Assembly (NCBI GenBank): GCA_009996615.1
Contig: JAACZU010000013.1
Span: forward strand, 27,990-91,989
Length of the DNA stretch: 64,000 nt
Origin: Rhodanobacteraceae bacterium
GTDB taxonomy: Bacteria > Pseudomonadota > Gammaproteobacteria > Xanthomonadales > Rhodanobacteraceae
Direction: 5' to 3'
Shown: positions 48,128 through 62,526 of the stretch, in pieces
Numbering within the stretch: position 1 is the stretch's first letter
Layout of the letters: each line of letters begins with the position of its first letter
Translations under genes and position numbers: made by a program
Notes under the pieces: generated by a model
What the model saw: the letters and a program-made list of their open reading frames with translations, nothing else
What the model was told of the DNA's origin: nothing
The model's database searches: none

Positions 48128-48156
48128 AGACTCCTCAATAAGAGCGGCAGACTGCG

Positions 48157-49194
48157 ATGACAACTCGACATTTCCTCAGCACCCAGGACTGGTCCCGCGC
48201 CGAGCTCGACGCGCTGCTCGCGCAGGCGGCCGCGTTCAAGCGTTCCAGGGCCGGCAGCCAGCTCGCCGGCAAGTCGATCGCGCTGCTGTTCTTCAACCCC
48301 TCGATGCGCACGCGCACCAGCTTCGAGCTCGGCGCGTTCCAGCTCGGCGGCCACGCGATCGTGCTGCAGCCGGGCAAGGACGCGTGGCCGATCGAGTTCG
48401 AGGTCGGCACGGTCATGGACGGCGAGGCGGAGGAACACGTCGCCGAGGTCGCGCGCGTGCTGTCGCGCTACGTCGACCTGATCGGCGTGCGCGCGTTCCC
48501 GAAGTTCCAGGACTGGTCGGTCGACCGCGAGGACCGCGTGATCCACGCGTTCGCGAAGCATTCGACGGTGCCGGTGATCAACATGGAGACGATCACGCAC
48601 CCGATGCAGGAGCTGGCTCACATCCAGGCGCTGTGGCAGCACTTCGGCGGCGCCACCCCGGGCGAGGCGCTGCGCGGCAGGAAGTACGTATTGACCTGGA
48701 CGTACCACCCCAAGCCCCTGAACACCGCGGTCGCGAACTCCGCGCTGCAGATCGCCACGCGCTACGGCATGGACGTGACCTTGCTGTGCCCGACCGAGGA
48801 CTACCTGCTCGATCCGCGCTACATGGAGTTCGCGAAGCAGAACGTCGCCGACAACGGCGGCTCGCTGACGATCAGCCACGACCCGGCGAGCGCCTACCGC
48901 GGCGCGCACGTCGTCTACGCCAAGAGCTGGGGCGCGCTGCCGTACTTCGGCCGCTGGGCCGACGAAAAGCCGATCCGCGATGCGCACAAGCACTTCATCG
49001 TCGACGAAGCCAAGATGGCGCTGACTGACCACGGCGTGTTCAGCCACTGCCTGCCGCTGCGCCGCAACGTCAAGGCGACCGACGCGGTCATGGACTCGCC
49101 CGCGTGCATCGCGATCGACGAGGCCGAGAACCGGTTGCATGTGCAGAAAGCGGTGATGGCGCAGCTTGCTGCGCAAGCAGGGAATCGGGAATAG
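48157..49194 (+). CDS. argF: N-acetylornithine carbamoyltransferase (AOTCase-type ArgF')
   Basis: FFNPSMRTRTSFELGAFQLGGHA, PVINMETITHP.QELAH, LTWTYHPKPLNTAVANSAL and HCLPLRRNVKATD are nearly collinear with the X. campestris AOTCase as I recall it. The stop TAG lies inside a repeat arm. Confidence 0.9.
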   Translation: MTTRHFLSTQDWSRAELDALLAQAAAFKRSRAGSQLAGKSIALLFFNPSMRTRTSFELGAFQLGGHAIVLQPGKDAWPIEFEVGTVMDGEAEEHVAEVARVLSRYVDLIGVRAFPKFQDWSVDREDRVIHAFAKHSTVPVINMETITHPMQELAHIQALWQHFGGATPGEALRGRKYVLTWTYHPKPLNTAVANSALQIATRYGMDVTLLCPTEDYLLDPRYMEFAKQNVADNGGSLTISHDPASAYRGAHVVYAKSWGALPYFGRWADEKPIRDAHKHFIVDEAKMALTDHGVFSHCLPLRRNVKATDAVMDSPACIAIDEAENRLHVQKAVMAQLAAQAGNRE

Positions 49195-49315
49195 GGAATA
49201 GGGAATCGTCAAAGCAGGCTTTCGTACGCATCAGTCTCTACTTCATTTCACCCATCTCTCGGACGCCGTCATGTCGAACGCTTCCACCATTCCCCATTCC
49301 CAATTCCCAATTCCC
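49180..49315. repeat. Heptamer-arm element (GGGAATA/GGGAATC type) bridging argF' and argG
   Basis: Left arm GGGAATCGGGAATAGGGAATAGGGAATCG (49180-49208). Right arm CCATTCCCCATTCCCAATTCCCAATTCCC (49287-49315). Confidence 0.85.
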
Positions 49316-50521
49316 GCCTCCGGAGAGCGCCAAGACATAGTCTTGGCGTTCTCCGGAGGATTGGACACCAGCTTCTGCGTGCCCTACCTGAAGGAGCGCG
49401 GCTGGGCCGTGCACACGGTGTTCGCCGACACCGGTGGCGTCGACGCGGAGGAGCGCGCGTACATCGAGCAGCGCGCGCACGAACTCGGCGTCGCCTCGCA
49501 CGTGACCGTCGACGGCGGTCCGGCGATCTGGGACGGCTTCGTCAAGCCGTTCGTCTGGGCCGGCGAGGGTTATCAAGGCCAGTATCCGCTGCTGGTGTCG
49601 GACCGCTACCTGATCGTCGACGCCGCGCTCAGGCGCTGCGCCGAGCTCGGCACGCGCGCGATCGCGCACGGCTGCACCGGCATGGGCAACGACCAGGTGC
49701 GCTTCGACCTCGCGGTCAAGGCGCAGGGCGACTACGAGATCGTCGCGCCGATCCGCGAGATCCAGAAGGAGCACACCGAGGTGCGCGCGTACGAACAGAA
49801 GTACCTCGAAGAGCGCGGCTTCGGCGTGCGCGCCAAGCAGAAGGCCTACACGATCAACGAGAACCTGCTTGGACTCACGATGTCCGGCGGCGAGATCGAC
49901 CGCTGGCAGGCGCCGGGCGAGGGCGCGCGTGGCTGGTGCAAGTCGCGCGCGGAATGGCCGACCGCGCCGCTGCGCGTGAAGCTGACCTTCGCCCACGGCG
50001 AGGCGGTCGCGCTCGACGGCGCGAAGATCGCCGGCCACGAACTGCTGGCCAGGCTCAACGGCCTGTTCGCGCAGTACGGCGTCGGCCGCGGTATCTACAC
50101 CGGCGACACGACGATCGGCCTCAAGGGTCGCATCATCTTCGAGGCGCCCGGCCTGGTCGCGCTGCTGACCGCGCATCGCGCGCTGGAAGAGGCGGTGCTG
50201 ACCAAGCAGCAGAACCGCTTCAAGCCCGACGTCGCGCGCAAGTGGGTCGAGCTGGTCTACGAAGGCTTCTTCCACGATCCGCTCAAGACCGACCTCGAGG
50301 CGTTCCTTGCCTCGAGCCAGGTCACGGTCAACGGCGACGTCGTGCTCGAGACCAGCGGCGGCAGCGTCAGCGCGGTCGCAATCGAGTCGAAGCACATCCT
50401 CAACGCCAAGGGCGCGACCTATGCGCAGGCCGCCGACTGGGGCGTCGCCGAGGCCGAAGGCTTCATCAAGCTGTTCGGCATGAGCTCGACGTTGTGGGCG
50501 CAGGTGAATGCGAAGGAATGA
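49271..50521 (+). CDS. argG: Argininosuccinate synthase
   Basis: [19 protein letters not shown]-binding motif. 416 aa. N-terminal codons 6-15 are repeat-derived. Confidence 0.94.
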
Positions 50522-50596
50522 GTGGGAGAAGTGAGAAACGAGAGAAAGCGGTGATGCCCCGTCACTCGTTTCTCACTCCTCTTCACTCGTTTCTCC
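50522..50596. repeat. GAGAAAC-type palindromic element between argG and argE
   Basis: GAGAAGTGAGAAACGAGAGAAAG ... CACTCGTTTCTCACTCCTCTTCACTCGTTTCTCC. AGTGAGAAACGAG pairs with CTCGTTTCTCACT. Confidence 0.7.
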
Positions 50597-50608
50597 GACA
50601 AGAGAACA

Positions 50609-51703
50609 ATGATGCTCAAGGAAACACTGGCTCATCTGAGGCACCTCGTCGCCTTCGACACGCGCAATCCGCCGCGCGCGATCGGCACCGGCGGCATCTT
50701 CGACTACCTGCGCGCGAACCTGCTGGGCTTCGAGGTCACCGTCACCGACCACGGCGCCGGCGCCGTCAGCCTGTATGCAGTGCGCGGCCAGCCGAAGCTG
50801 CTGTTCAACGTGCACTTGGACACCGTGCCCGATTCGCCGCACTGGAGCGCGAGTCCGTTCGAGCTGCGCGTGACCGAGGATCGGGCAATCGGCCTCGGCG
50901 CCTGCGACATCAAGGGCGCCGCGGCGGCGCTGCTCGCTGCCGCGCAGGCCAGCGACGGCGATGCCGCATTCCTGTTCACGACCGACGAGGAAGCGAACGA
51001 CCCGCGTTGCATCGCGGCGTTCCTGCGCGAGGCGCCCGCATTCGATGCCGTGCTGGTGGCCGAGCCGACCAAGGGCGAAGCCGTGCTCGCGCACCGCGGC
51101 ATCAGTTCGGTGCTGATGCGCTTCGCCGGCCGTGCCGGCCACGCCTCGGGCGAGCAGCAGCTCTCGGACAGCGCGCTGCACCAGGCGCTGCGCTGGGGTG
51201 CGTGTGCGCTCGACCAGGTCGAGTCGCTCGCGCATGCGCGCTTCGGCGGCCTGACCGGCCTGCGTTTCAACATCGGCCGCGTCGAAGGCGGCATCAAGGC
51301 CAACGTGATCGCGCCGGCGGCGGAGCTGCGCTTCGGCTTCCGCCCGCTGCCGTCGATGGACACCGACGAACTGCTGGCGACGTTCCGCGGCCTCGCCGAG
51401 GTCGCGCCGGCCGAGTTCACCGAAACCTTCCGCGGCCCGTCGCTGCCGGCCGGCGACATCGCCACCGCCGAGGCGCGCCGGCTCGCCGCGCGCGACGTCG
51501 CCGACGCGCTGGAGCTGCCGATCGGCAGCGCGGTCGATTTCTGGACCGAGGCCTCGCTGTTCTCGCAGGCCGGCTACACCGCACTCGTCTACGGCCCCGG
51601 CGACATCGCGCAGGCGCACAGCGCCGACGAGTGGGTCGCGCTCGAACAGTTGCAGCGCTACGCCGAAACCGTCCACCGCATCCTCACCCGACAGACTCCA
51701 TGA
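50609..51703 (+). CDS. argE: M20-family acetylornithine/acetylcitrulline deacetylase
   Basis: [18 protein letters not shown] and FTTDEE metal-binding pattern. Position within the arg cluster. Confidence 0.85.
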
Positions 51704-53022
51704 ACGCCGAAACGCATCTGCAAATGCGCCAGACCATCCTGCGCCTGCTCTCGAGCATGGCCAGCGCGCGCGAGATCGACCAGTACCTCAAGCGTTTCTC
51801 GCAGCTCGATGCGAAGCGCTTCGCCGTGGTCAAGGTCGGCGGCGCGGTGCTGCGCGACGACCTCGACGCGCTGACCTCGTCGCTGGCATTCCTGCAGCAG
51901 GTCGGACTAACGCCGATCGTCGTGCACGGCGCCGGCCCCCAGCTCGACGAGGAACTGGCCGCGGCCGGCATCGCCAAACAGACCGTCAACGGCCTGCGCG
52001 TGACCTCGGCGGAAACGCTGGCGATCGTGCGGCGCGTGTTCCAGACGCAGAACCTGAACCTGGTCGAGGCGCTGCAGGAAGTCGACGCGCGCGCGACCTC
52101 GGTGCTGTCGGGCGTGTTCGAGGCCGAGTTCATCGACCAGGACGCGCTCGGCCTGGTCGGCCGCGTCGCGCGCGTGAACCTCGCGCCGATCGAGGCGTCG
52201 CTGCGCGCCGGCTCCATTCCGGTGATCGCCTCGCTCGGCGAAACCGCGGGCGGGCAGATCGTCAATATCAACGCCGACTTCGCCGCGAACGAGCTCGTGC
52301 GCGTGCTCAAGCCCTACAAGATCATCTTCCTGACCGGCACCGGCGGCCTGCTCGACGAGAACGGCCGCATCATCGACTCGATCAACCTCAGCACCGAGTA
52401 CGCGCACCTGATCGCGCAGCCGTGGATCAACGGCGGCATGCGCGTGAAGATCGAGCAGATCAAGGAATTGCTCGACCACTTGCCGCTGTCGTCGTCGGTG
52501 TCGATCACCAGGCCGGACGAACTGGCCAAGGAACTGTTCACGCACAAGGGCTCGGGCACGCTGGTACGGCGCGGCGAGCGCGTCGACGTGCATGCGTCGT
52601 GGGACGCGCTCGACCTCGAGCGCCTGCGCGCGCTGATCGAAGCCGGCTTCGGCCGCAAGTTGGTGCCCGCCTATTTCGAGCAGACCCGGCTGTTCAAGGC
52701 CTACGTCAGCGAGAACTACCGCGCCGCGCTGATCCTGACCCAAGAGGATGGCTTCGCCTACCTCGACAAGTTCGCGGTCGCCGAGGACGCGCAGGGCGAG
52801 GGCCTCGGCCGCGCCGCGTGGCAGGTCATGCGCGCGGACAATCCGCAGCTGTTCTGGCGCTCGCGCCGGCGCAACGTGATCAATGCGTTCTACGACGCCG
52901 AATGCGACGGCAGCATCAAGGAGCCGACCTGGAAGGTGTACTGGTACGGCATCGACGACTTCAAGGACATCGAGCGCTGCGTCGTGCATTGCCGCACGCG
53001 CCTGCCGACGTTGACGGACTGA
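51700..53022 (+). CDS. argAB: Bifunctional N-acetylglutamate synthase/kinase (ArgA/B type)
   Basis: ATGA overlap with argE. N-terminal amino-acid-kinase domain ([17 protein letters not shown]) plus a C-terminal GNAT-like domain ([19 protein letters not shown]). Confidence 0.88.
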
Positions 53023-53026
53023 AACG

Positions 53027-53974
53027 ATGAAGGAAACGAAGACTCTCGGCATCGTTGGCGCGCGCGGCCACACCGGCGCGGAGCTGATTCGCCTCGTCGC
53101 GCGGCATCCGCGGCTCGAACTCGCGTTCGTGTCCTCGCGCGAGCTGGACGGCCAGCGCGTGCACGACCACGTGCCCGACTACGACGGCGTACTGCGCTAC
53201 GAGAACCTCGCGCCCGAGGCGGTCGCGGCGAAGCGGGCCGATGCGGTCGTGCTGGCGCTGCCGAATGGCAAGGCGGCCGAGTTCGTCGCCGCGATCGACG
53301 CGCTCAAGGCCGATCCGGTCATCGTCGACCTGTCCGCCGACTACCGCTTCGACGAGGCTTGGTACTACGGCCTGCCGGAGCTGACGCGCACGCGCTACGC
53401 GGGGCAGAAGCGCATCAGCAATCCGGGCTGCTACGCGACCGCGATGCAGCTCGCGATCGCGCCGCTGAAGGACCGCCTCGCCGCGCCGCCGGCCTGCTTC
53501 GGCGTGTCCGGCTACTCCGGCGCCGGCACCACGCCGTCGGACAGGAACGATCCGGACAAGCTGCGCGACAACCTGATGCCGTACGCGCTGGTCGACCACC
53601 TGCACGAGCGCGAGGTCACGCGCCAGCTCGGCCTGCCGGTCGAGTTCATGCCGCACGTCGCGCCGCATTTCCGCGGCATCACGATGACGGTGAACCTGTG
53701 GCTCACGCAGGCGGCCAAGCGCGACGACATCCTCGCGCGCTACCGCGAGTTCTACGCCAACGAGCCCCTCGTGCGCATCGTCGACGAGGCACCTTGGGTC
53801 AGCGCGATTGCCGGAAAGCATCATGCGGAAATCGGCGGCTTCGCGGTCGCGCCGGGCGGCAAGCGCGTCGTCGTCGTCGCGACGCTCGACAACCTGCTCA
53901 AGGGCGCCGCGACGCAGGCGATGCAGAACCTCAACCTCGCGTTCGGCTTCGACGAACTGAGCGCGATCCAGTAG
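53027..53974 (+). CDS. argC: N-acetyl-gamma-glutamyl-phosphate reductase
   Basis: [13 protein letters not shown]. Catalytic Cys in [10 protein letters not shown]. Confidence 0.93.
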
Positions 53975-54012
53975 CCCGCCAGCTTCGGTGAGCTGGCAGC
54001 AGTAGCTCGTCG

Positions 54013-54216
54013 CCCCGGCGAAGGCCGGGGCCCAGTGCCTCTCCAGATCGCTGAAGACGCTGGGTCCCGGCCTTCGCCGGGACGACGAGAATGTAGGCTT
54101 TCGCAAATCCGCATTCCCCAATCCCCAACCCGAACCCTGCTTTTTCGCCCCAAGCGCGAAACGGAGCACCGATGAACGGCTCTTCCGAATCCCCAATCCC
54201 GAATCCCGAATCCCGG
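54013..54216. repeat. Partial composite element: two internal hairpins plus two C-rich arms, no G-rich arm
   Basis: Hairpins CCCCGGCGAAGGCCGGGG (54013-54030) and TCCCGGCCTTCGCCGGGA (54065-54082). C-rich arms at 54105-54137 and 54185-54216. Confidence 0.8.
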
Positions 54217-55497
54217 CTCCTATGGCAAAAAGAAGGCACCCGCACCGACGAGCGCATCATGCGTTTCCTCGCCGGTGACGACGTGATCCTCGACCGCGAG
54301 TTCTTCCTGCACGACATCGAGGCGAGCCAGGCGCACGTCGGCGGGCTCGCCAACATCGGCATCATCAGCGACGACGAGCGCGCCACGATCGTGCGCGAGC
54401 TCGAGGTGCTCGCCGACGACTTCCGCGCCGGCCGCTTCGTGCTCGACGAGCGCTACGAGGACGGCCATTCGGCGATCGAGGCGCGCCTGACCGAGCGCCT
54501 GGGCGATGCCGGCCGCAAGGTGCACACCGGGCGCAGCCGCAACGACCAGATCCTGGTCGCCACGCGCCTGTGGCTGAAGGCCAAGCTGGCCGAGCTGTTC
54601 GAGGCCTGCCGCGCCGCGGCGCAGGTCTGCCTCGAGCGCGCTGCCGGCGAGGCGCTGCCGCTGCCGGGCTACACGCACCTGCAGCGCGCGGTGGTGTCGT
54701 CGACCGCGCTGTGGTTCGCCGGCTTCGCCGAAGCGTTCATCGACGACGCCCGTCGCGCGCGCGACACGCTGGCCTGGCTCGACGCGAACCCGCTCGGTAC
54801 CGCGGCCGGCTATGGCGTGAACCTGCCGCTCGACCGCGCGCACACGACGCAGGCGCTCGGCTTCGCGCGCATGCAGGTCAACCCGGTCTACGCGCAGCTC
54901 TCGCGTGGCAAGTTCGAGATCGGCGCGCTCGACGCGCTCGGCAGTGCGCTGCTCGACCTGCGCCGGCTGGCCTGGGACCTGTCGCTGTTCACGACCGCCG
55001 AATACGGCTTCGTGCAGCTGCCGGCCGAGTACACGACCGGCAGTTCGATCATGCCGAACAAGCGCAATCCCGACGTGGTCGAGCTGATGCGCGCGAGCTA
55101 TGCCAGCGTCGCCGCGGCGCGCACCGAGATCGAGCAGCTGCTGTCGCTGCCGTCCGGCTACCAGCGCGACCTGCAGTTCTCCAAGGGCGCGATCTTCCAC
55201 GGCTTCCATCGTGGTCTCGACGCGCTCGCGTTGCTGCCGGACCTGCTCGCGCGGATGCAGTGGAACGCACCGGCAATGCGCGCGGCGATCGAGCCGTCGA
55301 TGTACGCGACCGACGTCGCGATCGAGCAGGCCGCCGCCGGCGTGCCGTTCCGCGAGGCATACCGCCAGGCGGCCGAAGCCGCGGCGACGGCCGGGCAGGG
55401 GCGCACGCCGGAAACGAGCCTGGCCGCGCGCGTGTCACCCGGTGCGACGGCCGACCTTTGCCTCGACGAGCTGCGCGCGCGGCTGGCCGCCTTGTAG
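54172..55497 (+). CDS. argH: Argininosuccinate lyase
   Basis: TGRSRNDQ and the [12 protein letters not shown] signature. N-terminal [11 protein letters not shown] is encoded by a repeat arm. Confidence 0.93.
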
Positions 55498-55555
55498 GCC
55501 ACGCGCCAATGGTGGGACTCGCGCCTTCGGCGCTGCGGCCCACCCTACGGGTGCG

Positions 55556-56884
55556 TCATCGCGTCAGCCATCCCTGCGCGCGCGCCGTGCACAGCGCATA
55601 CGGGAAGATCCAGAACAGCGCGAACGCCGAGAAGAACGCGTAGCCGATGCCGTAGACGAAGTCCCAGCTGCGTTCGCTGCGCAGGTAGTAGAGCATGTTG
55701 AATGCCGACACCAGCAGCAGCGCGCAGCAGAAGCGCAGCAGCACCTCCGGGTGCACCGGCAGCATCGCCACCAGCAGCGCCAGCGTGGCCCAGCCGATCG
55801 GGTAGCGCAGGTTCGTGATCGCGACGTCGGCGAGCGTGATCGCGCGCGCGAACGGCGGCCGCTTCCACACGATGCGGCCGACGTAGCGCAGCTCCTCGCG
55901 CACGTAGCTGCGGTCCCAGCGCAGGAACATCTTGCACAGGCGCGCGTAGGTCGTCGGCACCAGCGTGTGCACGACCGCCGCGCGCTGGTAGATGCAGTCG
56001 TAGCCCTGGCCGAGGATGTCGTTGGTCAGCGCGCGGTCTTCGCCGTAGGTGCAGGCGCGGCCGAGGAAGCGCTGCCCGAGCCACGCGTCGAGCACGCGGC
56101 GCACGGCATGCGTGCGGTAGGCGGCGAGCGCGCCGGGGCAGCAGTAGACCGTGCCGTAGGTGCTCTGCACCGCGCGCAGGAAGTCGAACGACAGCGCGAA
56201 GCGCACCTTCAGCATGCGCGGGATCAGCCCGCTTTCGCGGTTGAACACGCCGACCTTGCCGGCGACTGCGCCAACGCGCGGGTCGCGGAACGGCCCGGCC
56301 ATCGCCAGCAGCGTCTGCGGCTCGATCACGCTGTCCGAATCGATCGTGACCATGACCTCGCCGCGCCCGCGCTCGAAGCCGGCCGCGAGTGCCGCGCGCT
56401 TGCCGCGGTTGCGCTCGAAGCGCAGCGGCGTGACGAGGTCGGGAAAGCGCGCGGCTGCACGCTGGATGTGCTCCCAGGTGTCGTCGCGGCTGCCGTCGTC
56501 GACGACGACGATCTCCAGCCGGTCGTGCGGGTAGTGCGCGTGCGCGACCGACTCGATCGAGCGCGCGACCATCGCGCCCTCGTTGTAGGCCGGGATGATC
56601 ACGGTCATCGCCGGCGCGTCGTCGAACGCGGCCAGCGGCGGCGTGCGGTAGCGAAACCACAGCAGCGTGCGGAACAGCAGCAGCGCCAGTCCCAGGCCGC
56701 TCCACAGCAGCGCCGGGCCGACCAGGAAGCGGCCCCATTCGTGGTGGCGCGCCGCGCCGACCACGCCATGGAACACGTGGAAGCGCCAGCTGGCGTACAG
56801 CAGCAGCGCGAAACCGAACAGGATCAGCGCGCGGTAGAACGCATCGTCCGCGCGTTCGCGATAGTCGTGCAGCGGCGTCATCAT
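55556..56884 (-). CDS. Membrane-embedded family-2 glycosyltransferase, HAS/NodC/chitin-synthase-like
   Basis: Start at MMTPLHDY. VIIPAYNEG, VVDDGSRDDT, TIDSDS, FLGRACTYGEDRALTN and FLRWDRSYVRE (QxxRW-like) motifs. Hydrophobic segments at both ends. Confidence 0.85.
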   Translation of the reverse strand: MMTPLHDYRERADDAFYRALILFGFALLLYASWRFHVFHGVVGAARHHEWGRFLVGPALLWSGLGLALLLFRTLLWFRYRTPPLAAFDDAPAMTVIIPAYNEGAMVARSIESVAHAHYPHDRLEIVVVDDGSRDDTWEHIQRAAARFPDLVTPLRFERNRGKRAALAAGFERGRGEVMVTIDSDSVIEPQTLLAMAGPFRDPRVGAVAGKVGVFNRESGLIPRMLKVRFALSFDFLRAVQSTYGTVYCCPGALAAYRTHAVRRVLDAWLGQRFLGRACTYGEDRALTNDILGQGYDCIYQRAAVVHTLVPTTYARLCKMFLRWDRSYVREELRYVGRIVWKRPPFARAITLADVAITNLRYPIGWATLALLVAMLPVHPEVLLRFCCALLLVSAFNMLYYLRSERSWDFVYGIGYAFFSAFALFWIFPYALCTARAQGWLTR

Positions 56885-57023
56885 GGCAGGGCGGGGCAGC
56901 GAAGGCGCGATCTTTGCGGCGCCTGGAAGAACCGGGTCTGAACGACGGTTCACGTGCCGGTAAGCCGCCGGCAAGGCGCCTGCGGCATCGTGGCGGCCCA
57001 GGGACACGGAGCGCGGGAGGCGG

Positions 57024-58688
57024 ATGGAAGCGGGACTGCAGATGGCGTATCCGCGCCGCTGGCTGGTGGCGCTCGCGCTGACCGCGGCGGCGATCCTGCT
57101 GCTCGCCCTGCGCGTGAAGACCGCGTTGACGCTCGCGATGAACTCGGACGAGCCGCAGCACCTGCACGTCGTGTGGGCGTGGACGCAGGGGCTGCTGCCG
57201 TACCGCGACGTGTTCGACAACCACGCGCCGTTGTTCGGCTGGTTGTGCGCGCCGCTGCTCGCGTGGCTTGGCGAGCGCGCCGACATCGTTGCGCTGATGC
57301 GCCTGGCGATGATCCCGCTGTATTTCGCCGCGCTGGCGCTGACCTGGTGGATCGGCCGCCTGATATGGTCGTCGCGGACAGGGCTGGCCGCGGTCGCGCT
57401 GCTCGCGCTGGCGCCGCCGTTCTTCGGCGTGACGGCGCAGTTCCGGCCCGACGACCTGTGGATGCTGCTCTGGCTCGGTGCGGTGGCGGCCGTGCTGACG
57501 CGGCCGTTCGGCGTGCGCCAGGCGTTCGTCGCTGGCCTGCTGCTCGGCGCCGCGTTCGCGGTATCGCTCAAGACGCTGCTGCTGTTGCTCACCGCGGTGC
57601 TGGCGGCGACGACGCTGTGGGCGATCCGCCGGCTGGCCGGTGCGCGCCGCATGCCGGTGCGACCGGCGGCGCTGCTGGCGGCGCTTGCCGGCGCGCTGCT
57701 GGTGCCGGGCGCGTTCGCCGCGTACCTGTTCGCCGAAGGCGCCGCGCGTGACGCGCTCTACTGCCTGTTCACGCACAACGTCGTGCCGGGGCTGGGCCAC
57801 TGGGGCACGGCCAGCGGCTGGCACCGGCTGGTGTTTCCGCTGGGCTACGCGGGCGCGACCCTGCTGGCCTGGCGCGCCCGCCACGCCGGCGAGCCGGATG
57901 TCGCGTGGCGGCGCCGCTGGCTGCTGCTGTCGCTGTGCGCCTACCTGTTCGCGCTGTACTCGTACTGGCCGCTGTTCACGCGCCAGGACGTGCTGCCGGT
58001 GTTGCCGCTGCTGGCGCTGGCGCTGGCCGCCTGGCTGACCCGGGTGCCGGCGCCGCCGCGCGCGCTCCGCTACGCGGTCGTGGCATTCCTCGCCGGCCTC
58101 GTCACGGTGCACCAGGCGCAACTGGCGTGGATGGGGGATGCCTTGCGCGTGCCGGCGCAGCGCCTGGCGACCGTGCTGGCGCTGACGCGCCCGGGCGAGC
58201 CGGTGATGGATGCGAAGGGCGAGGCGATCTTCCGGTCGCGCCCGCTGTACTGGGTGCTGGAGGGCGTCACGCAGCGGCGCATGGCGATCGGCCTGATCCC
58301 CGACGACATCGCCGAGCGGCTGGCCGCGACGGCGACGCCGCTGGTCATCGGCGACCGCCTGCCGCCGCGCGACGCGGCCTTCGTCGCCGCGAACTACCTG
58401 CCGATCGGGCAGAAGCTGTGGCTGCTCGGACAGCGCCTGGGCACGCTGCGCGCCGGCGAGCGCGTGCGCTTCGAGATCGCCGTGCCGGCGACCTACAGCG
58501 CGGTGACGGCGCGTGGGTCGGCGGCCGGCACGCTCGACGACGGCGCCGCCGCCACCGCGCGCGCGCTCGATGCCGGTTCGCACAGTTTCACGGCCGCCGC
58601 CGACGGCGCAGTTGCGCTAGTCTGGACGCCGGCCCTTGCGCGCGGCCTGCACACCGAACTCCTGTTTGCCGGAACCGACCCGCGATGA
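57024..58688 (+). CDS. Polytopic GT-C-type glycosyltransferase (ArnT/PMT_2-like)
   Basis: At least 10 hydrophobic segments. Acidic loop motif NSDEPQH after TM1. About 180-aa C-terminal soluble region. The start could be 57024 or 57042. Confidence 0.65.
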   Translation: MEAGLQMAYPRRWLVALALTAAAILLLALRVKTALTLAMNSDEPQHLHVVWAWTQGLLPYRDVFDNHAPLFGWLCAPLLAWLGERADIVALMRLAMIPLYFAALALTWWIGRLIWSSRTGLAAVALLALAPPFFGVTAQFRPDDLWMLLWLGAVAAVLTRPFGVRQAFVAGLLLGAAFAVSLKTLLLLLTAVLAATTLWAIRRLAGARRMPVRPAALLAALAGALLVPGAFAAYLFAEGAARDALYCLFTHNVVPGLGHWGTASGWHRLVFPLGYAGATLLAWRARHAGEPDVAWRRRWLLLSLCAYLFALYSYWPLFTRQDVLPVLPLLALALAAWLTRVPAPPRALRYAVVAFLAGLVTVHQAQLAWMGDALRVPAQRLATVLALTRPGEPVMDAKGEAIFRSRPLYWVLEGVTQRRMAIGLIPDDIAERLAATATPLVIGDRLPPRDAAFVAANYLPIGQKLWLLGQRLGTLRAGERVRFEIAVPATYSAVTARGSAAGTLDDGAAATARALDAGSHSFTAAADGAVALVWTPALARGLHTELLFAGTDPR

Positions 58689-59737
58689 GCGCAATGCAAT
58701 TGTCCAGCAGCGATCGCGTGCTGATCTTTTCGCCGCATCCGGACGACGAGACGCTCGCCGCCGGCGAGGCGGTCCAACTAGCGCTCGCGGCCGGCGCCGC
58801 GGTGCGCGTCGTGTTCGCGACCGACGGCGACAACAATCCGTGGCCGCAGCGCTGGCTCGAGCGGCGCTGGCACATCGATGCGGCCGCGCGCGCGCGCTGG
58901 GGCGCACGCCGGCGGCGCGAGGCGCTGGCCGCACTGGCCGTGCTCGGCGTCACCGATGCATCGACGGTCGCCTTCCTTGGCTGGCCCGACCAGGGCCTGA
59001 CCGCTTGCCTGATGCGCGACGACGCGGCGGTCGCGGCGCTCGCGCGCGAGATCGCCGCGTTCGCGCCGAGCCACGTGCTGATGCCGGCGCTCGGCGACCT
59101 GCATCCGGACCACAGTGCGCTGCGCGTGATGCTCGACCTCGCGCTGGCGCGCTGTGGCAGCGCCGCCGTGCGCCTCGGCTACGTCGTGCACGGCGCGGCC
59201 GTCGCGGCGCGCGCGTGCATGGTCGCGCCCGACGCCGTGCGGCGCGCGCACAAGCGGCGCGCGCTGTTCGAGCACGCCAGCCAGATCGCGTTGAGCCGGC
59301 GTCGCCTGCTCGAGCTGGCCGGTCGCACCGAACGGTTCGAGGCCGCCGCCGCGCCGGCGCCGGTGCGGCTCGACGTGGCGACGGTCGTGCGCATCGCGCA
59401 GCGCGCCGGCGCACCGCTGCGCCGCCGCCGCGAGCTGTTGCTGGTGCTGGCGACGCGCGCGCGCACGCAGCGCCTGCGCCTCGCGCTGCCGCGCTGGCCG
59501 CACGGCCGCACCGTGCTGGCCAGCGGCGAGGGAGCGGCCGAGGTCGCGATCGAATGGGCCGGCGATGCGTGGCTGCTGCAATTGCCGCCGCTGCCGTCGC
59601 CGCTGGTCGGGCTGTACGCGAAACTCGACCGCGCCTGGCCGCGCCTGGTCGTCTTCGACGACGAGCCTTGGCACGACCTCGGCGACCTGCTGCCGGGCGC
59701 CCATCCGGCGCTCGCGCCGCATCCGGCCACGGCGTGA
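58685..59737 (+). CDS. PIG-L/LmbE family N-acetylglucosaminyl deacetylase with C-terminal extension
   Basis: ATGA overlap with the upstream gene. Motifs SPHPDDETLAAG and LHPDH. No signal peptide. Confidence 0.8.
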   Translation: MSAMQLSSSDRVLIFSPHPDDETLAAGEAVQLALAAGAAVRVVFATDGDNNPWPQRWLERRWHIDAAARARWGARRRREALAALAVLGVTDASTVAFLGWPDQGLTACLMRDDAAVAALAREIAAFAPSHVLMPALGDLHPDHSALRVMLDLALARCGSAAVRLGYVVHGAAVAARACMVAPDAVRRAHKRRALFEHASQIALSRRRLLELAGRTERFEAAAAPAPVRLDVATVVRIAQRAGAPLRRRRELLLVLATRARTQRLRLALPRWPHGRTVLASGEGAAEVAIEWAGDAWLLQLPPLPSPLVGLYAKLDRAWPRLVVFDDEPWHDLGDLLPGAHPALAPHPATA

Positions 59738-59741
59738 GCGG

Positions 59742-60626
59742 ATGAGCGAGGCGCGATCCGGCGACGCGGGCGCGGCGATGATCGAAAGCCTGCGCGTGAC
59801 CGCCGCCGACGGCGCCGGCGCCGACCTGCAGTGCGTGTATCCGGACGGCCCGGTGCATGACGTCGTGCTGTGGCTGCCGGCGCTCGGCGTCAGCGCACGC
59901 AAGTACCTGCCACTGGCGACGGCGCTGGCCGGGCGCGGCATTGCCGTCGCGCTGCACGAATGGCGTGGCCTTGGTTCGAGCGATCGCCGCGCCGGCTTCC
60001 GCTGCGACTGGGGCTATCGCGAACTGCTGCTGCAGGACCTGCCGGCCAGCCTCGCGGCCGTGCGCGCGGCGTGTCCACAGGCACGCATCTGGTTCGGCGG
60101 ACACAGCCTCGGCGGCCAGCTGGCAATGCTGTTCGCCGCGCTGCAGGCGGCGCCGCCGGCCGGCCTGCTGCTGGTCGGCAGCGGCGCGCCTTACTGGCGC
60201 GTGTTTTCGCGCCGCTGGCTGATCGGCGCCGCGCTCGTGCTGGTGCCGGCGATCGCGCGGCTGTGCGGCCACCTCCCCGGGCGCCGGTTGGGCTTCGGCG
60301 GCCGCGAGGCGCGCAGCGTGATGGCGGACTGGGCGCGCAGCGGCCGCAGCGGGCGCTACGCGGCGGCCGGGCTGGCAGTCGACCTGGAGGCGGCCTGCGC
60401 GCGCCTGCGCCTGCCGGTGCTCGCGCTGCGGCTGCGCGACGACTGGCTCGGGCCGGCCGCCGCGCTGGCGTGGCTGCTCGGCAAGATGCCGCAGGCTGCG
60501 GCGGACGTGCGCGTGCTGGGGCCGGACGTGCTCGGCACGGCGGCCGACCACTTCGGCTGGATGCAGGCGCCGCACGCCGTGGCCGCCGCGCTGGCCGCCG
60601 GCATCGACGCAAAAACGGCGAAATAA
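59742..60626 (+). CDS. Alpha/beta hydrolase
   Basis: 4-nt gap after the deacetylase gene. Nucleophile elbow GHSLGG. Confidence 0.75.
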   Translation: MSEARSGDAGAAMIESLRVTAADGAGADLQCVYPDGPVHDVVLWLPALGVSARKYLPLATALAGRGIAVALHEWRGLGSSDRRAGFRCDWGYRELLLQDLPASLAAVRAACPQARIWFGGHSLGGQLAMLFAALQAAPPAGLLLVGSGAPYWRVFSRRWLIGAALVLVPAIARLCGHLPGRRLGFGGREARSVMADWARSGRSGRYAAAGLAVDLEAACARLRLPVLALRLRDDWLGPAAALAWLLGKMPQAAADVRVLGPDVLGTAADHFGWMQAPHAVAAALAAGIDAKTAK

Positions 60627-60722
60627 CAGAATCTTACAAGGGGGCTGTCATACTCGCGGGCTACCGCGCGCTGGTGCCGCCCGCACCGCATGCGCGGCCG
60701 TCTGAGGAGGACACAGCAACCC

Positions 60723-61073
60723 ATGACTTACGATATCGGAATTGGACGCTGCACGGAGGTCGATGGCGACACCGTGGTCGTCAAGCTCGAAAGCGTGATG
60801 GTGCAGCGCCTGTCGCCCGACCAGCCGTGGCGGCGCTCGGGAACGAGCGTGCTGCGCCTGAACCGCAAACTGTGCAGTCCCCGGCGTCCGCCCGAGCCCG
60901 ACCGCGAGCTTTACCTCGATCGTGCGGCGCTGAGCAAGCGCTCGATCGGCGCGCTCGACCTTGGCGGCGGCGGCGAGACGATCTCGGTGGACCTGCGCGC
61001 GCTGCTCGACGGCCTCGATCCGCAGCCGTCGGCCGGGCCGCAGCCCAAGGGGCGCGGCGGCGCGAAACGCTGA
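60723..61073 (+). CDS. Hypothetical protein (116 aa)
   Basis: GAGGAGG SD 12 nt upstream of ATG 60723. GC-rich third positions. No family recognised. Confidence 0.5.
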   Translation: MTYDIGIGRCTEVDGDTVVVKLESVMVQRLSPDQPWRRSGTSVLRLNRKLCSPRRPPEPDRELYLDRAALSKRSIGALDLGGGGETISVDLRALLDGLDPQPSAGPQPKGRGGAKR

Positions 61074-61092
61074 CCGCCATGCGGACCGCAGG

Positions 61093-61130
61093 AACAGGAA
61101 ACCCGGCGCAAGGCCGGGTTTCCTGTTTCT
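61093..61130. terminator. Bidirectional hairpin terminator between convergent genes
   Basis: AACAGGAAACCCGG / CCGGGTTTCCTGTT stem with a T-run on the + strand. Confidence 0.6.
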
Positions 61131-61152
61131 GGCTGGCGTCGCGACGCGCGGA

Positions 61153-61488
61153 TCAGCCCGCGGCGTCCTTGAGCTTCTTCAGCGGGCGCACCTTCACCTT
61201 CACGCTCGCCGGCTTGGCGGCGAACCAGCGCTCTTCCTTGGTGAACGGATCGATGCCCTTGCGCTTGGGCTTGGCCGGCACCGCGGTCGCGGTAATCTTG
61301 AGCAGGCCCGGCAGCGTGAAATGGCCCACGCCCTTCTTGTGCATCGAGCCGGCGATGGCCTGCTCCAGCGCCTCGAGCACGCCCTTCGCCGTGCGCTTGT
61401 CGGTGCCGGCCTCATCGGCCAGGTGCGCCACGAGCGCGGTCTTCGACAGCGCTTCGGTGATGGGCTTGGTCTTCTTGGCAGTTGCCAT
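61153..61488 (-). CDS. HU/IHF-family DNA-binding protein with Lys-rich tail
   Basis: Start at MATAKKTKPITEAL. HU-fold pattern ...GHFTLPGLLKI...RKGIDPFTKEE...KVKVRPLKKLKDA. Confidence 0.8.
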   Translation of the reverse strand: MATAKKTKPITEALSKTALVAHLADEAGTDKRTAKGVLEALEQAIAGSMHKKGVGHFTLPGLLKITATAVPAKPKRKGIDPFTKEERWFAAKPASVKVKVRPLKKLKDAAG

Positions 61489-61671
61489 GCGTATTCCTCG
61501 CTGGTTGGGTAAAGGGAATGGTAGGGCTTCCCACCCGGTTGCCCGCAACCGCTGCAGGACGCTCCCGCCGCGGGCCGGCAGACCGTGCCACATCGCCCTG
61601 CGCGGATCGTAGCAGCGATCCTGCCCGCGGATGCACAGGTTCGATCAGTTTGCCGTGCATCGTGCAGCGCA

Positions 61672-62526
61672 TCATCCGGCGGGCGCGTGTGCGGCGTCAT
61701 GCCCGGCCAGGTGGTCGCCCAGGCGCATCAGCGTGACGACGTCCTGGCGGTTGTGCTCGAGAACGCGCGCGAGGTTGCGGCTGGATTCGCCGCGCAGGAA
61801 CGAAAGCCACGCGGCCGGCGCCTCGGATCCGGGCAGGTCGTCCTCGCGCACGACGCGCAGCACCTCGCGCTCGATCGTGGCGAGCTTGCAGTTGGCGAAC
61901 ACGCCGCGGTAGCGCCGGCGCACCGGATGCAGCCAGTCCAGGTGCGGCAGTTCGGCCAGGCGGTGCTCGACGCGATTCAGGCGCAGGCGTCCCTTGAGCA
62001 GGGGCGCGTCGTAGCTCTTGCCGTTGTAGCTGACCAGGATCGTGTCCGCGCGCAGCCAGCTTGCGAACATTTCCAGCATCGCCGCCTCGCCGGCGAGCGT
62101 GGTGAGATAGAGCTGGCGCACGCTGAGGCGACCGTCCTGCCACGCGGCCGCGCCAATCATGAATGCGCGCGTGCCGACGCCGCCGGCCAGACCCGTGGTC
62201 TCGGTGTCGAAGCAGAGCAGGCGCTCGCGTTCGATCGGCTCGGCCAGCGCCGGCAGCGCGAGCCGCGGCGCGGCCGGGTAGGCGAACGAGCGCTCGACAT
62301 AGCGCACGCCGGGCGCGATCTCCTCACCGGCCGGCGCGGCCAGCGGCGCGCGCGGTGGTGTGCGGCGCAGCTCGCGCGCGCGGACGAGTTCGCGCAGCGC
62401 GTCGAATGCGGCGTGTCCGCGTGCGGGCGCCGCTCCCGCTGTGCGTGCCGGCGGCGGTTCGACGCGCGGCGCGGCTACGCCCGCGTCGGCGCGCAGGCGC
62501 GCGAGGCGTTCGGCCAGCGCGTTCAT
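61672..62526 (-). CDS. RNase H-like (YprB/MrfB-like) exonuclease domain protein
   Basis: ATGA overlap with the upstream helicase. LLCFDTETTGL and VSYNGKSYDAPLL motifs. Confidence 0.8.
   Translation of the reverse strand: MNALAERLARLRADAGVAAPRVEPPPARTAGAAPARGHAAFDALRELVRARELRRTPPRAPLAAPAGEEIAPGVRYVERSFAYPAAPRLALPALAEPIERERLLCFDTETTGLAGGVGTRAFMIGAAAWQDGRLSVRQLYLTTLAGEAAMLEMFASWLRADTILVSYNGKSYDAPLLKGRLRLNRVEHRLAELPHLDWLHPVRRRYRGVFANCKLATIEREVLRVVREDDLPGSEAPAAWLSFLRGESSRNLARVLEHNRQDVVTLMRLGDHLAGHDAAHAPAG

Follow-up and report, generated by a model that had tools for sequence, protein, structure and literature searches.

Aminosugar Decoration Pathways and the Locus under Study

Modification of lipid A with an amino sugar has been described for the arn pathway (ArnC/ArnD/ArnE-F/ArnT), for the lgm genes of Bordetella (LgmA/B/C) and for FlmF2-NaxD-FlmK. 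The logic of these pathways is that a lipid-linked N-acyl sugar is converted to a free amine and then transferred in the periplasm, and a GT-C glycosyltransferase of ArnT fold is coupled to a cytoplasmic de-N-acylase. In mycobacteria, PpgS (Rv3631) and Rv3779 carry out the galactosamine decoration of arabinogalactan. To our knowledge, all the characterised aminosugar decoration systems use deacylases of the ArnD or the YdjC type. NaxD, from Francisella and Acinetobacter, belongs to the YdjC family and deacetylates undecaprenyl-phosphate-linked GalNAc (Und-P-GalNAc). The present analysis deals with a four-gene locus in a 64,000-nt stretch of DNA from a Rhodanobacteraceae bacterium (contig JAACZU010000013.1, positions 27,990 to 91,989), referred to here as the window. 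Two of its genes, encoding a GT-C transferase and a two-domain deacetylase of the PIG-L/LmbE family, are, by genome comparison, a conserved core, widely paired across phyla. The best explanation for this core, to which we give about even chances, is an uncharacterised variant of the polyprenyl-phosphate aminosugar decoration known from arn, lgm, flm/NaxD and PpgS-Rv3779.

The locus is composed of the following elements (positions in the window):

55556-56884, minus strand: glycosyltransferase family 2 (GT2) protein of the hyaluronan synthase (HAS)/NodC-like type, 442 amino acids

56885-57023, no strand: divergent intergenic region between the GT2 and GT-C genes, 139 nt

57024-58688, plus strand: GT-C glycosyltransferase of ArnT fold (modelled), 554 amino acids

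58685-59737, plus strand: PIG-L/LmbE deacetylase, 350 amino acids, its start overlapping the GT-C stop as ATGA

59742-60626, plus strand: alpha/beta hydrolase, 294 amino acids, after a 4-nt gap behind PIG-L

The four genes, their motifs and their junctions, re-read from translations and coordinates, are as given in a preliminary description of this DNA. Gene prediction made independently on the source contig yields the same four genes, with PIG-L starting 6 nt later and having 347 amino acids. Judged by the ATGA overlap, GT-C and PIG-L are translationally coupled. The 139-nt intergenic stretch presumably holds a regulatory region common to GT2 and GT-C; a promoter and terminator scan found no sigma-70 consensus, which is uninformative at 72% G+C. 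A 1012-amino-acid open reading frame (ORF) at 55545-58583 on the minus strand, antisense to GT-C and out of frame over GT2, was discarded as a shadow ORF of high-G+C DNA and is no gene.

The PIG-L Deacetylase and Its GT-C Partner

The deacetylase matches the Pfam family PF02585 with 84.1 bits (1.5e-23; threshold 28.2), and the motifs PHPDDE and HPDH can be read in its translation. Across 24 sequences no change is seen at the metal and catalytic residues H18, D20, D21, H140, D142 and H143. The protein is made of an N-terminal LmbE domain (about residues 1-215) and a conserved C-terminal beta-sandwich (about residues 217-330). Its AlphaFold model (pLDDT 85.8) matches the folds of BC1534, BshB, MshB and diacetylchitobiose deacetylase (Dac), with target-normalised TM-scores of up to 0.72, and the fold search returned no structural match for the beta-sandwich. 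All the equivalog models for LmbE-type deacetylases score far under their cut-offs on this protein. Its fold and its His/Asp motifs are those of the LmbE deacetylases MshB, BshB, eukaryotic PIG-L, archaeal diacetylchitobiose deacetylase and teicoplanin Orf2*, from which it is distinguished by the extra beta-sandwich of about 120 residues.

LmbE-family deacetylases act in the cytoplasm on the GlcNAc of a conjugate. A hydropathy scan of the translations found no N-terminal hydrophobic signal in PIG-L or in the hydrolase, in agreement with the cytoplasmic placement of the deacetylase proposed previously. We know of no GT-C genomic partner for any of the named bacterial LmbE-family enzymes (MshB, BshB and others). 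The PIG-L protein DnpA of P. aeruginosa, whose gene belongs to a lipopolysaccharide (LPS) core cluster, likewise lacks a GT-C partner.

The transferase was placed by its fold. Its only Pfam match is to PMT_2 and lies under the threshold (17.3 bits; cut-off 26.1), while the homologue P0010 reaches 29.6 and precomputed matches to PF13231 are found on many of its relatives. A profile search of PDB sequences with the GT-C protein found nothing, and the placement comes from the fold search only. Using its AlphaFold (AF2) model (pLDDT 86.7), Foldseek gave ArnT (5ezm) as the top match, with a TM-score (TMq) of 0.58 over 557 columns and 14% identity, followed by ALG9, STT3 and PMT. The structural comparison with ArnT that the preliminary description had suggested was thereby made, and ArnT is the best full-length match; the modelled fold is ArnT-like, although sequence thresholds are not reached. 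The family assignments of that description hold for the locus, with the difference that GT-C falls below the PMT_2 threshold.

The GT-C protein has about 11-12 transmembrane (TM) helices, and its C-terminal part forms a beta-rich domain in the periplasm. In its first periplasmic loop, after the first TM segment, residues D42 and E43 of the motif NSDEPQHLH are invariant in 21 sequences. These data agree with the earlier picture of a protein with more than ten TM segments and an acidic first-loop motif. Compared with ArnT itself, the protein is divergent, with about 14% identity, no PDB match at the sequence level and the beta-rich periplasmic domain.

Conservation of the GT-C/PIG-L Pair

A collection of species-representative genomes was scanned with the GT-C alignment, yielding 531 related stretches. 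Of these, 80 loci were kept, with flanks of up to 10 kb per side, and a few metagenome loci brought the GT-C-anchored set to 85 (loci are designated by L numbers below). PIG-L is the direct neighbour of GT-C in 45 of the 85 loci, and in 40 of the 73 whose downstream sequence extends for 1.5 kb or more. Loci with the pair are found in Lysobacterales/Rhodanobacteraceae, Chthoniobacterales and other Verrucomicrobia, Methylophilaceae, Nitrospirae, Eisenbacteria, Binatota, Acidobacteria and Dormibacterota. Carriers that can be cultured include Novimethylophilus kurashikiensis La2-4, Dokdonella sp. MW10, Dyella sp. C11 and Chthoniobacter flavus. No broadly conserved neighbour of GT-C other than PIG-L was detected in the 85 loci. 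All-against-all clustering of ORFs was noisy from shadow ORFs in high-G+C DNA, and only clusters of high bit-score were used.

The preliminary description had treated the four genes as one unit, holding itself that a lack of co-conservation would speak against it, and the neighbourhood comparison found that the four genes are not co-conserved. Only GT-C and PIG-L are kept together across phyla; GT2 is a neighbour in one clade only, and the hydrolase recurs in a single other locus, one that has no GT-C. The combination had not been recognised there as a characterised system, and full-text literature searches found no paper on LmbE/PIG-L enzymes linked with ArnT/GT-C transferases.

A two-component system lies upstream of GT-C in 8-11 loci. 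The single annotated example is verrucomicrobial:

L084, 5896-7939: response regulator and histidine kinase, same strand, directly upstream of GT-C-PIG-L, with related loci in clusters 10 and 18

By analogy with PmrAB and arn, this arrangement suggests that the modification is regulated.

In several Chthoniobacter loci (L029, L062, L076, L077), two GT-C paralogues are found in tandem.

Joint transcription of the pair has one weak piece of evidence, a single contig of metatranscriptomic origin, belonging to a close relative, that spans the GT-C/PIG-L junction. Most alignments from the RNA runs were short, spurious and G+C-rich, and one run labelled as RNA may contain DNA.

An apparent 877-amino-acid GT-C::PIG-L fusion on a 242-kb ENA contig (P0042) was rejected as a frameshift artefact of long-read assembly because out-of-frame Arg-rich stretches stand in place of the GT-C end and the C-terminal part of PIG-L. 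Moreover, a C-terminal fusion of this kind would place PIG-L in the periplasm.

Fusions of PIG-L to Polyprenyl-Phosphate-Type GT2 Domains

In four loci, the gene after GT-C encodes a single protein in which the two-domain PIG-L is followed by a GT2 domain:

L040: PIG-L::GT2 fusion after GT-C, 615 amino acids, metagenome-assembled genome (MAG) of Nitrospirae

L038: PIG-L::GT2 fusion after GT-C, 597 amino acids, Methylophilaceae

L033: PIG-L::GT2 fusion after GT-C, 590 amino acids, Methylophilaceae

L073: PIG-L::GT2 fusion after GT-C, 588 amino acids, Methylophilaceae isolate Novimethylophilus kurashikiensis La2-4

Among NCBIfam models, the GT2 domains of the L040 and L038 fusions best match AglJ, PpgS (polyprenyl-phospho-N-acetylgalactosaminyl synthase), dolichyl-phosphate hexose transferase and ArnC, and are not HAS/NodC-like. 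Their PpgS scores, 73 and 76 bits, do not reach the equivalog cut-off of 370. The GT2 that is fused to PIG-L elsewhere is thus of the polyprenyl-phosphate type (PpgS/AglJ/DPM-like) and not of the HAS/NodC type that the preliminary description had included in its unit.

A polyprenyl-phosphate-type GT2 also follows PIG-L directly in about 13 loci, and those in which it is fused or adjacent include L033, L038, L040, L073, L012 and L017. In L012, from Chthoniobacteraceae, the GT2 behind PIG-L carries a GtrA/DPMS TM domain and is joined to a further PMT_2 region:

L012, 3676-5625, plus strand, and L017, 12820-14741 (both Chthoniobacteraceae): GT2 with GtrA/DPMS TM domain joined to, or placed before, a second GT-C region of the PMT_2 type

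The HAS/NodC-like and the PpgS-like GT2 are never found together near a GT-C in the 85 loci.

A Pathway Proposed for the Pair

The fusions link the deacetylase to an enzyme type that charges polyprenyl phosphate with HexNAc, and the constant GT-C partner links it to one that draws on polyprenyl-phosphate sugars at the outer membrane face (outer side of the inner membrane). Together they point to a route in which polyprenyl-phosphate-linked N-acetylhexosamine (polyprenyl-P-HexNAc) is converted to the hexosamine form (polyprenyl-P-HexN), which is then flipped and serves for HexN transfer. In the proposed sequence, a cytoplasm-facing GT2 would load GlcNAc or GalNAc from a UDP-sugar onto polyprenyl phosphate. 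At the inner membrane face, the lipid-linked sugar would be N-deacetylated by the signal-less PIG-L/LmbE enzyme. The lipid-linked HexN would then be flipped, and the ArnT-fold GT-C would use it on the periplasmic side, passing the amino sugar, now cationic, to an acceptor. This acceptor is most likely lipid A/LPS or another envelope glycan, lipid A/LPS being the obvious candidate in diderm carriers. The families, the folds, the operon coupling, the adjacency across phyla and the fusions of PIG-L to polyprenyl-phosphate-type GT2 domains are direct observations. The identity of substrate, sugar and acceptor and the step of flipping are our inferences from these. The comparative evidence on the pair favours the first of two possibilities raised in the preliminary description, a lipid-linked GlcNAc unit that is N-deacetylated and transferred by GT-C.

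The parallel with arn, lgm and flm, already drawn there with the proviso of a different deacetylase family, extends to the polyprenyl-phosphate-type GT2 found in related loci and to the two-component system found with some of them. The deacetylase is PIG-L/LmbE, unlike the CE4-like ArnD and the YdjC-family NaxD, although its role may be the same. Further differences are that the GT2 adjacent in the window is of the HAS/NodC type rather than the ArnC type, and that no flippase gene is conserved. With the mycobacterial PpgS/Rv3779 system, the module shares the PpgS-like GT2 domains of the L040 and L038 fusions and a predicted polyprenyl-P-HexNAc donor, whose sugar would end as HexN on a wall glycan through a GT-C. 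However, the carriers described here are mostly diderm bacteria. We know of no PIG-L partner described for the mycobacterial system.

Several points weigh against this interpretation. No PpgS-like GT2 of the polyprenyl-phosphate type is present within the 64-kb window, whose only GT2 is of the HAS/NodC type, so that the first step is unaccounted for there. The window has no flippase gene, of the ArnE/F or the GtrA-like kind, and none is conserved across the loci, the GtrA/DPMS TM domain being confined to L012. Furthermore, 31 of the 85 GT-C loci have neither PIG-L nor GT2 nearby. Some carriers are labelled as Chloroflexota-like groups (Limnocylindrales, Dormibacterota). These groups may lack LPS, in which case lipid A cannot be the universal acceptor. 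Finally, the function proposed for GT-C and PIG-L derives from comparison for every member.

The HAS/NodC-Like GT2

The GT2 of the window carries the motifs DDGSRDDT, TIDSDS, FLGRACTYGEDRALTN and FLRWDRSY. Its Pfam matches are Glycos_transf_2 (6.9e-35), Glyco_tranf_2_3, Glyco_trans_2_3 and Chitin_synth_2, and its best PDB match is the Chlorella-virus hyaluronan synthase (4e-30). The best NCBIfam model is NodC (TIGR04242), which aligns over the full length with 163.3 bits against an equivalog cut-off of 550. The PgaC model (TIGR03937; PgaC/IcaA) gives 123.4 bits and does not reach its equivalog cut-off of 422.3. The match to ArnC (1.6e-12) is far weaker than those to HAS and NodC, as expected from the earlier statement that the protein is HAS/chitin/NodC-like rather than ArnC-type. 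The protein can accordingly be classed, by sequence comparison, with the processive HAS/NodC/chitin-synthase type at the superfamily level, but not as a NodC or PgaC equivalog.

TM segments at both ends, which had also been predicted, appear as four hydropathy peaks, two per end (15-33, 53-71, 365-383 and 409-427); the overall count is two N-terminal and two to four C-terminal segments. The 22 members of the family share 63-85% identity with the protein of the window, their mean column identity is 74%, and the TM regions are conserved across the family too. DDGSRDD, DSD and GEDR are invariant in the 22 members and align to the Chlorella-virus HAS. A feature absent from the preliminary description is a variant of the QxxRW motif, M319-F-L-R-W, in which R322 and W323 are invariant and the Gln position is occupied by an invariant Met across the family. 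At the C-terminal GWLTR, residues W439, T441 and R442 are invariant, and this motif may be the counterpart of a WGT(R/K)-like motif.

The protein resembles class I HAS in its alignment to the viral enzyme, including FLG..CTYGEDR.LTN and RW..S..RE, and resembles both HAS and NodC in the TM segments at both ends and the C-terminal GWLTR. It differs from HAS in being shorter and in the replacement of the Gln of QxxRW by the invariant Met. In contrast to the Nod factor core (NodA, NodB, NodC), its neighbours are PIG-L and an alpha/beta hydrolase. Pfam and NCBIfam searches of the locus and its neighbouring genes revealed no NodA, NodB, NodIJ or UDP-GlcA supply genes near the locus.

The similarity to PgaC/IcaA (123 bits) and the presence of a deacetylase gene nearby could suggest a secreted, partially de-N-acetylated GlcNAc polymer of the poly-N-acetylglucosamine (PNAG) type. 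The PgaC score is, however, far under its cut-off of 422, and no PgaA-, PgaB- or PgaD-like genes are found around the locus. In addition, PNAG-type polymers are deacetylated after export by periplasmic CE4 enzymes, whereas PIG-L belongs to the cytoplasmic LmbE family and has no signal peptide. The partially deacetylated polymer, offered as the second possibility in the preliminary description, fits poorly with such a deacetylase, and we regard it as extremely improbable.

Association of the GT2 with the Pair at the arg Site

A metagenome scan with the GT2 alignment, in which one search pattern was generic, contained 14 true family members among the 80 loci listed. Over the GT-C- and GT2-anchored look-ups together, the GT2 is at least 70% identical to that of the window in 14 loci, and all of these have GT-C and/or PIG-L as immediate neighbours, beside the arg operon. 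In the GT-C-anchored set, the HAS/NodC-like GT2 adjoins GT-C in only about 11 of the 85 loci, all of them gammaproteobacterial. The arrangements found are the following:

Window, L002, L003, L054, L087: GT2 divergent from GT-C-PIG-L

L014, L015, L018, L025/L083, L039, L043: GT-C convergent with GT2, no PIG-L

L088, L103: GT2 divergent from PIG-L, no GT-C

L173: GT2 divergent from PIG-L-hydrolase, no GT-C

With at least three arrangements, GT-C stands on either side of GT2 in different genomes of the clade. The arg block flanks differing gene sets in L083 (TspO and GT-C), L087, L088, L172 (a 3.6-Mb contig) and L173, and the spot downstream of argH is thus, as far as these genomes show, a variable insertion site in the clade.

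The association of GT2 with the pair is, as a pattern in the genomes compared, real and confined to one Xanthomonadales-like clade and one site. Its inclusion in the pathway meets four difficulties. First, in 16 loci with a GT2 59-69% identical, among the matches listed, there is no GT-C, no PIG-L and no recurrent neighbour; these solitary GT2 loci include MAGs labelled Gammaproteobacteria and Polyangiaceae. Second, PIG-L stands alone after argH in L172. Third, GT2 is conserved at 63-85% identity versus 37-55% for GT-C. Fourth, all the adjacent genes are found at the same place in the chromosome, beside argH, and inherited synteny could explain this. In favour of a functional link are the adjacency kept through rearrangements, with GT-C on either side of the GT2, and the mutual exclusion of the HAS/NodC-like and the PpgS-like GT2 near a GT-C. 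On this genomic evidence, a functional link of the GT2 to the pair has roughly even odds. Within the clade of the window, the GT2 could take the place of the polyprenyl-phosphate-type GT2 by making a lipid-linked GlcNAc unit or oligomer, could be the maker of a glycan that is decorated, or could be a syntenic neighbour.

The last of these possibilities supposes that the GT2 has an independent function and happens to occupy a variable position behind the arg operon that in one lineage also received the GT-C/PIG-L module, TspO and the hydrolase. The solitary state of the more distant GT2 genes, the restriction of all adjacencies to the argH side and the variability of the site speak in its favour, as does the G+C content of the 58-60 kb stretch (0.756, above the 0.68-0.70 of the arg genes). 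Yet the GT2 keeps GT-C and/or PIG-L as neighbours in 14 of 14 clade loci despite rearrangements, and it diverges from GT-C/PIG-L across only 139 nt. Mere synteny is in our view unlikely.

Solitary GT2 genes with the MxxRW motif (L089, L091, L090, L083) are often found near an unrelated alpha/beta hydrolase, a fatty-acid desaturase, an epoxide hydrolase and short-chain dehydrogenases. These lipid-type neighbours, none of which recurs consistently, may hint at a lipid acceptor.

In another model, the GT2 would polymerise and export a GlcNAc-containing glycan, which GT-C would decorate in the periplasm from a polyprenyl-P-HexN donor supplied jointly by PIG-L and a lipid-phosphate GT2 encoded elsewhere, much as in side-chain addition of the Gtr or GacL type. 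Decoration of polymers by GT-C enzymes with lipid-phosphate donors is an established activity. The model is in keeping with the HAS-like layout of the GT2 (TM segments at both ends, GEDR, RW and GWLTR) and with the position of GT-C on either side of it in the clade genomes. It is unlikely all the same: GT2 occurs with PIG-L but no GT-C in L088, L103 and L173, GT-C/PIG-L is present in many phyla without a HAS/NodC-like GT2, and the window holds no export, porin or regulatory partner genes of synthase-dependent polymers.

The Hydrolase and the Chito-Oligosaccharide Alternative

The hydrolase matches Hydrolase_4 (2.6e-14), has a GHSLGG nucleophile elbow and is weakly similar to monoglyceride lipases. 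Setting aside the two copies of the window, the GT-C-anchored set comprises 83 loci, and none of them has a homologue of it. One orthologue, with 63% identity, is located directly after PIG-L in L173, and the view taken from the GT-C-anchored set, that the hydrolase is never conserved, was dropped in favour of rarely conserved. From this distribution, the hydrolase appears to be a sporadic accessory gene. A hydrolase beside a distant GT2 in L089 was set aside as unrelated to that of the window.

The L173 locus, where GT2 accompanies PIG-L-hydrolase in the absence of GT-C, speaks for a cytoplasmic route similar to that of Nod factors but built from non-homologous parts. Here the GT2 would make short chito-oligosaccharides, PIG-L would deacetylate the non-reducing GlcNAc in the role of NodB, and the hydrolase would re-acylate or trim the product, leaving GT-C outside the pathway. 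The GT2 and PIG-L of L088 and L103, again without GT-C, are in line with this route, as are the full-length NodC match of the GT2 and the similarity of PIG-L in fold to BC1534 and the diacetylchitobiose deacetylases, of which the archaeal ones deacetylate the non-reducing GlcNAc. Against it stand the ties of the two-domain PIG-L to GT-C across phyla and its fusions to lipid-phosphate GT2s, as well as the occurrence of the hydrolase in one other locus only. At 163 bits the GT2 falls well short of the NodC cut-off of 550, the Gln of QxxRW is lost, and neither a NodA-type acyltransferase nor a NodIJ-type exporter is present among the Pfam-annotated genes around the locus. In addition, genomes with no GT-C at the arg site may encode it elsewhere. 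This route is judged distinctly unlikely.

A wider formulation, in which GT2, PIG-L and a re-acylating hydrolase form, in the Xanthomonadales-like clade, a Nod-factor-like chito-oligomer pathway of non-homologous enzymes or make a GlcN-glycolipid, similar to glycosylphosphatidylinositol (GPI), that is extended or transferred by GT-C, seems very unlikely. If true, such a Nod-like or GPI-like glycolipid pathway would represent a new class of GlcN-terminated lipo-oligosaccharide in soil bacteria outside rhizobia.

Genomic Surroundings and Base Composition

The genes on both sides of the locus in the window are the following:

48142-55497, plus strand: complete arginine biosynthesis block directly upstream of the locus (argF, argG, argE-like M20 peptidase, fused N-acetylglutamate kinase/NAT, argC, argH)

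60690-61073, plus strand: ORF after the hydrolase, 127 amino acids from the first ATG (116 amino acids in the JGI annotation), with no Pfam match and no TM segment

61153-63998, minus strand: HU-like DNA-binding protein, RNase_H_2-fold protein and DEAD/Helicase_C/MZB helicase (796 amino acids on the source contig)

The ORF at 60690-61073 is present on both source contigs. The RNase_H_2-fold protein and the helicase look like a helicase-nuclease repair pair, apparently unrelated to the locus.

The G+C content of the window is about 70%, and its gene order is that of a Xanthomonadales/Lysobacterales-type chromosome, here recovered from soil metagenome data. Positions 56001-62000 have a G+C content of 0.72-0.76 versus 0.68-0.70 in the arg genes, and an AT skew of -0.10 to -0.12 versus +0.05 to +0.07. 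This shift in composition is compatible with a later acquisition of the region, or with different strand or codon constraints.

Biological Implications

Placing a cationic sugar on the envelope is one of the main ways in which bacteria resist polymyxins and the cationic peptides of hosts and competitors, and it shapes the sensing of lipid A. If the proposed pathway is right, PIG-L/LmbE would be a third deacetylase family in such decoration, paired with a divergent ArnT-fold transferase, and would extend the decoration paradigm. The predicted chemistry of the GT-C/PIG-L module is plausible rather than surprising, and the module is widespread: related GT-C stretches number about 530 in species-representative genomes, from many soil and water phyla. 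The GT2 with the MxxRW motif represents a very conserved, uncharacterised synthase family. For two large groups of proteins annotated as 'hypothetical' and 'PIG-L family', the analysis provides a testable predicted function, and the PIG-L::GT2 fusions of culturable Methylophilaceae offer a direct handle for its biochemistry.

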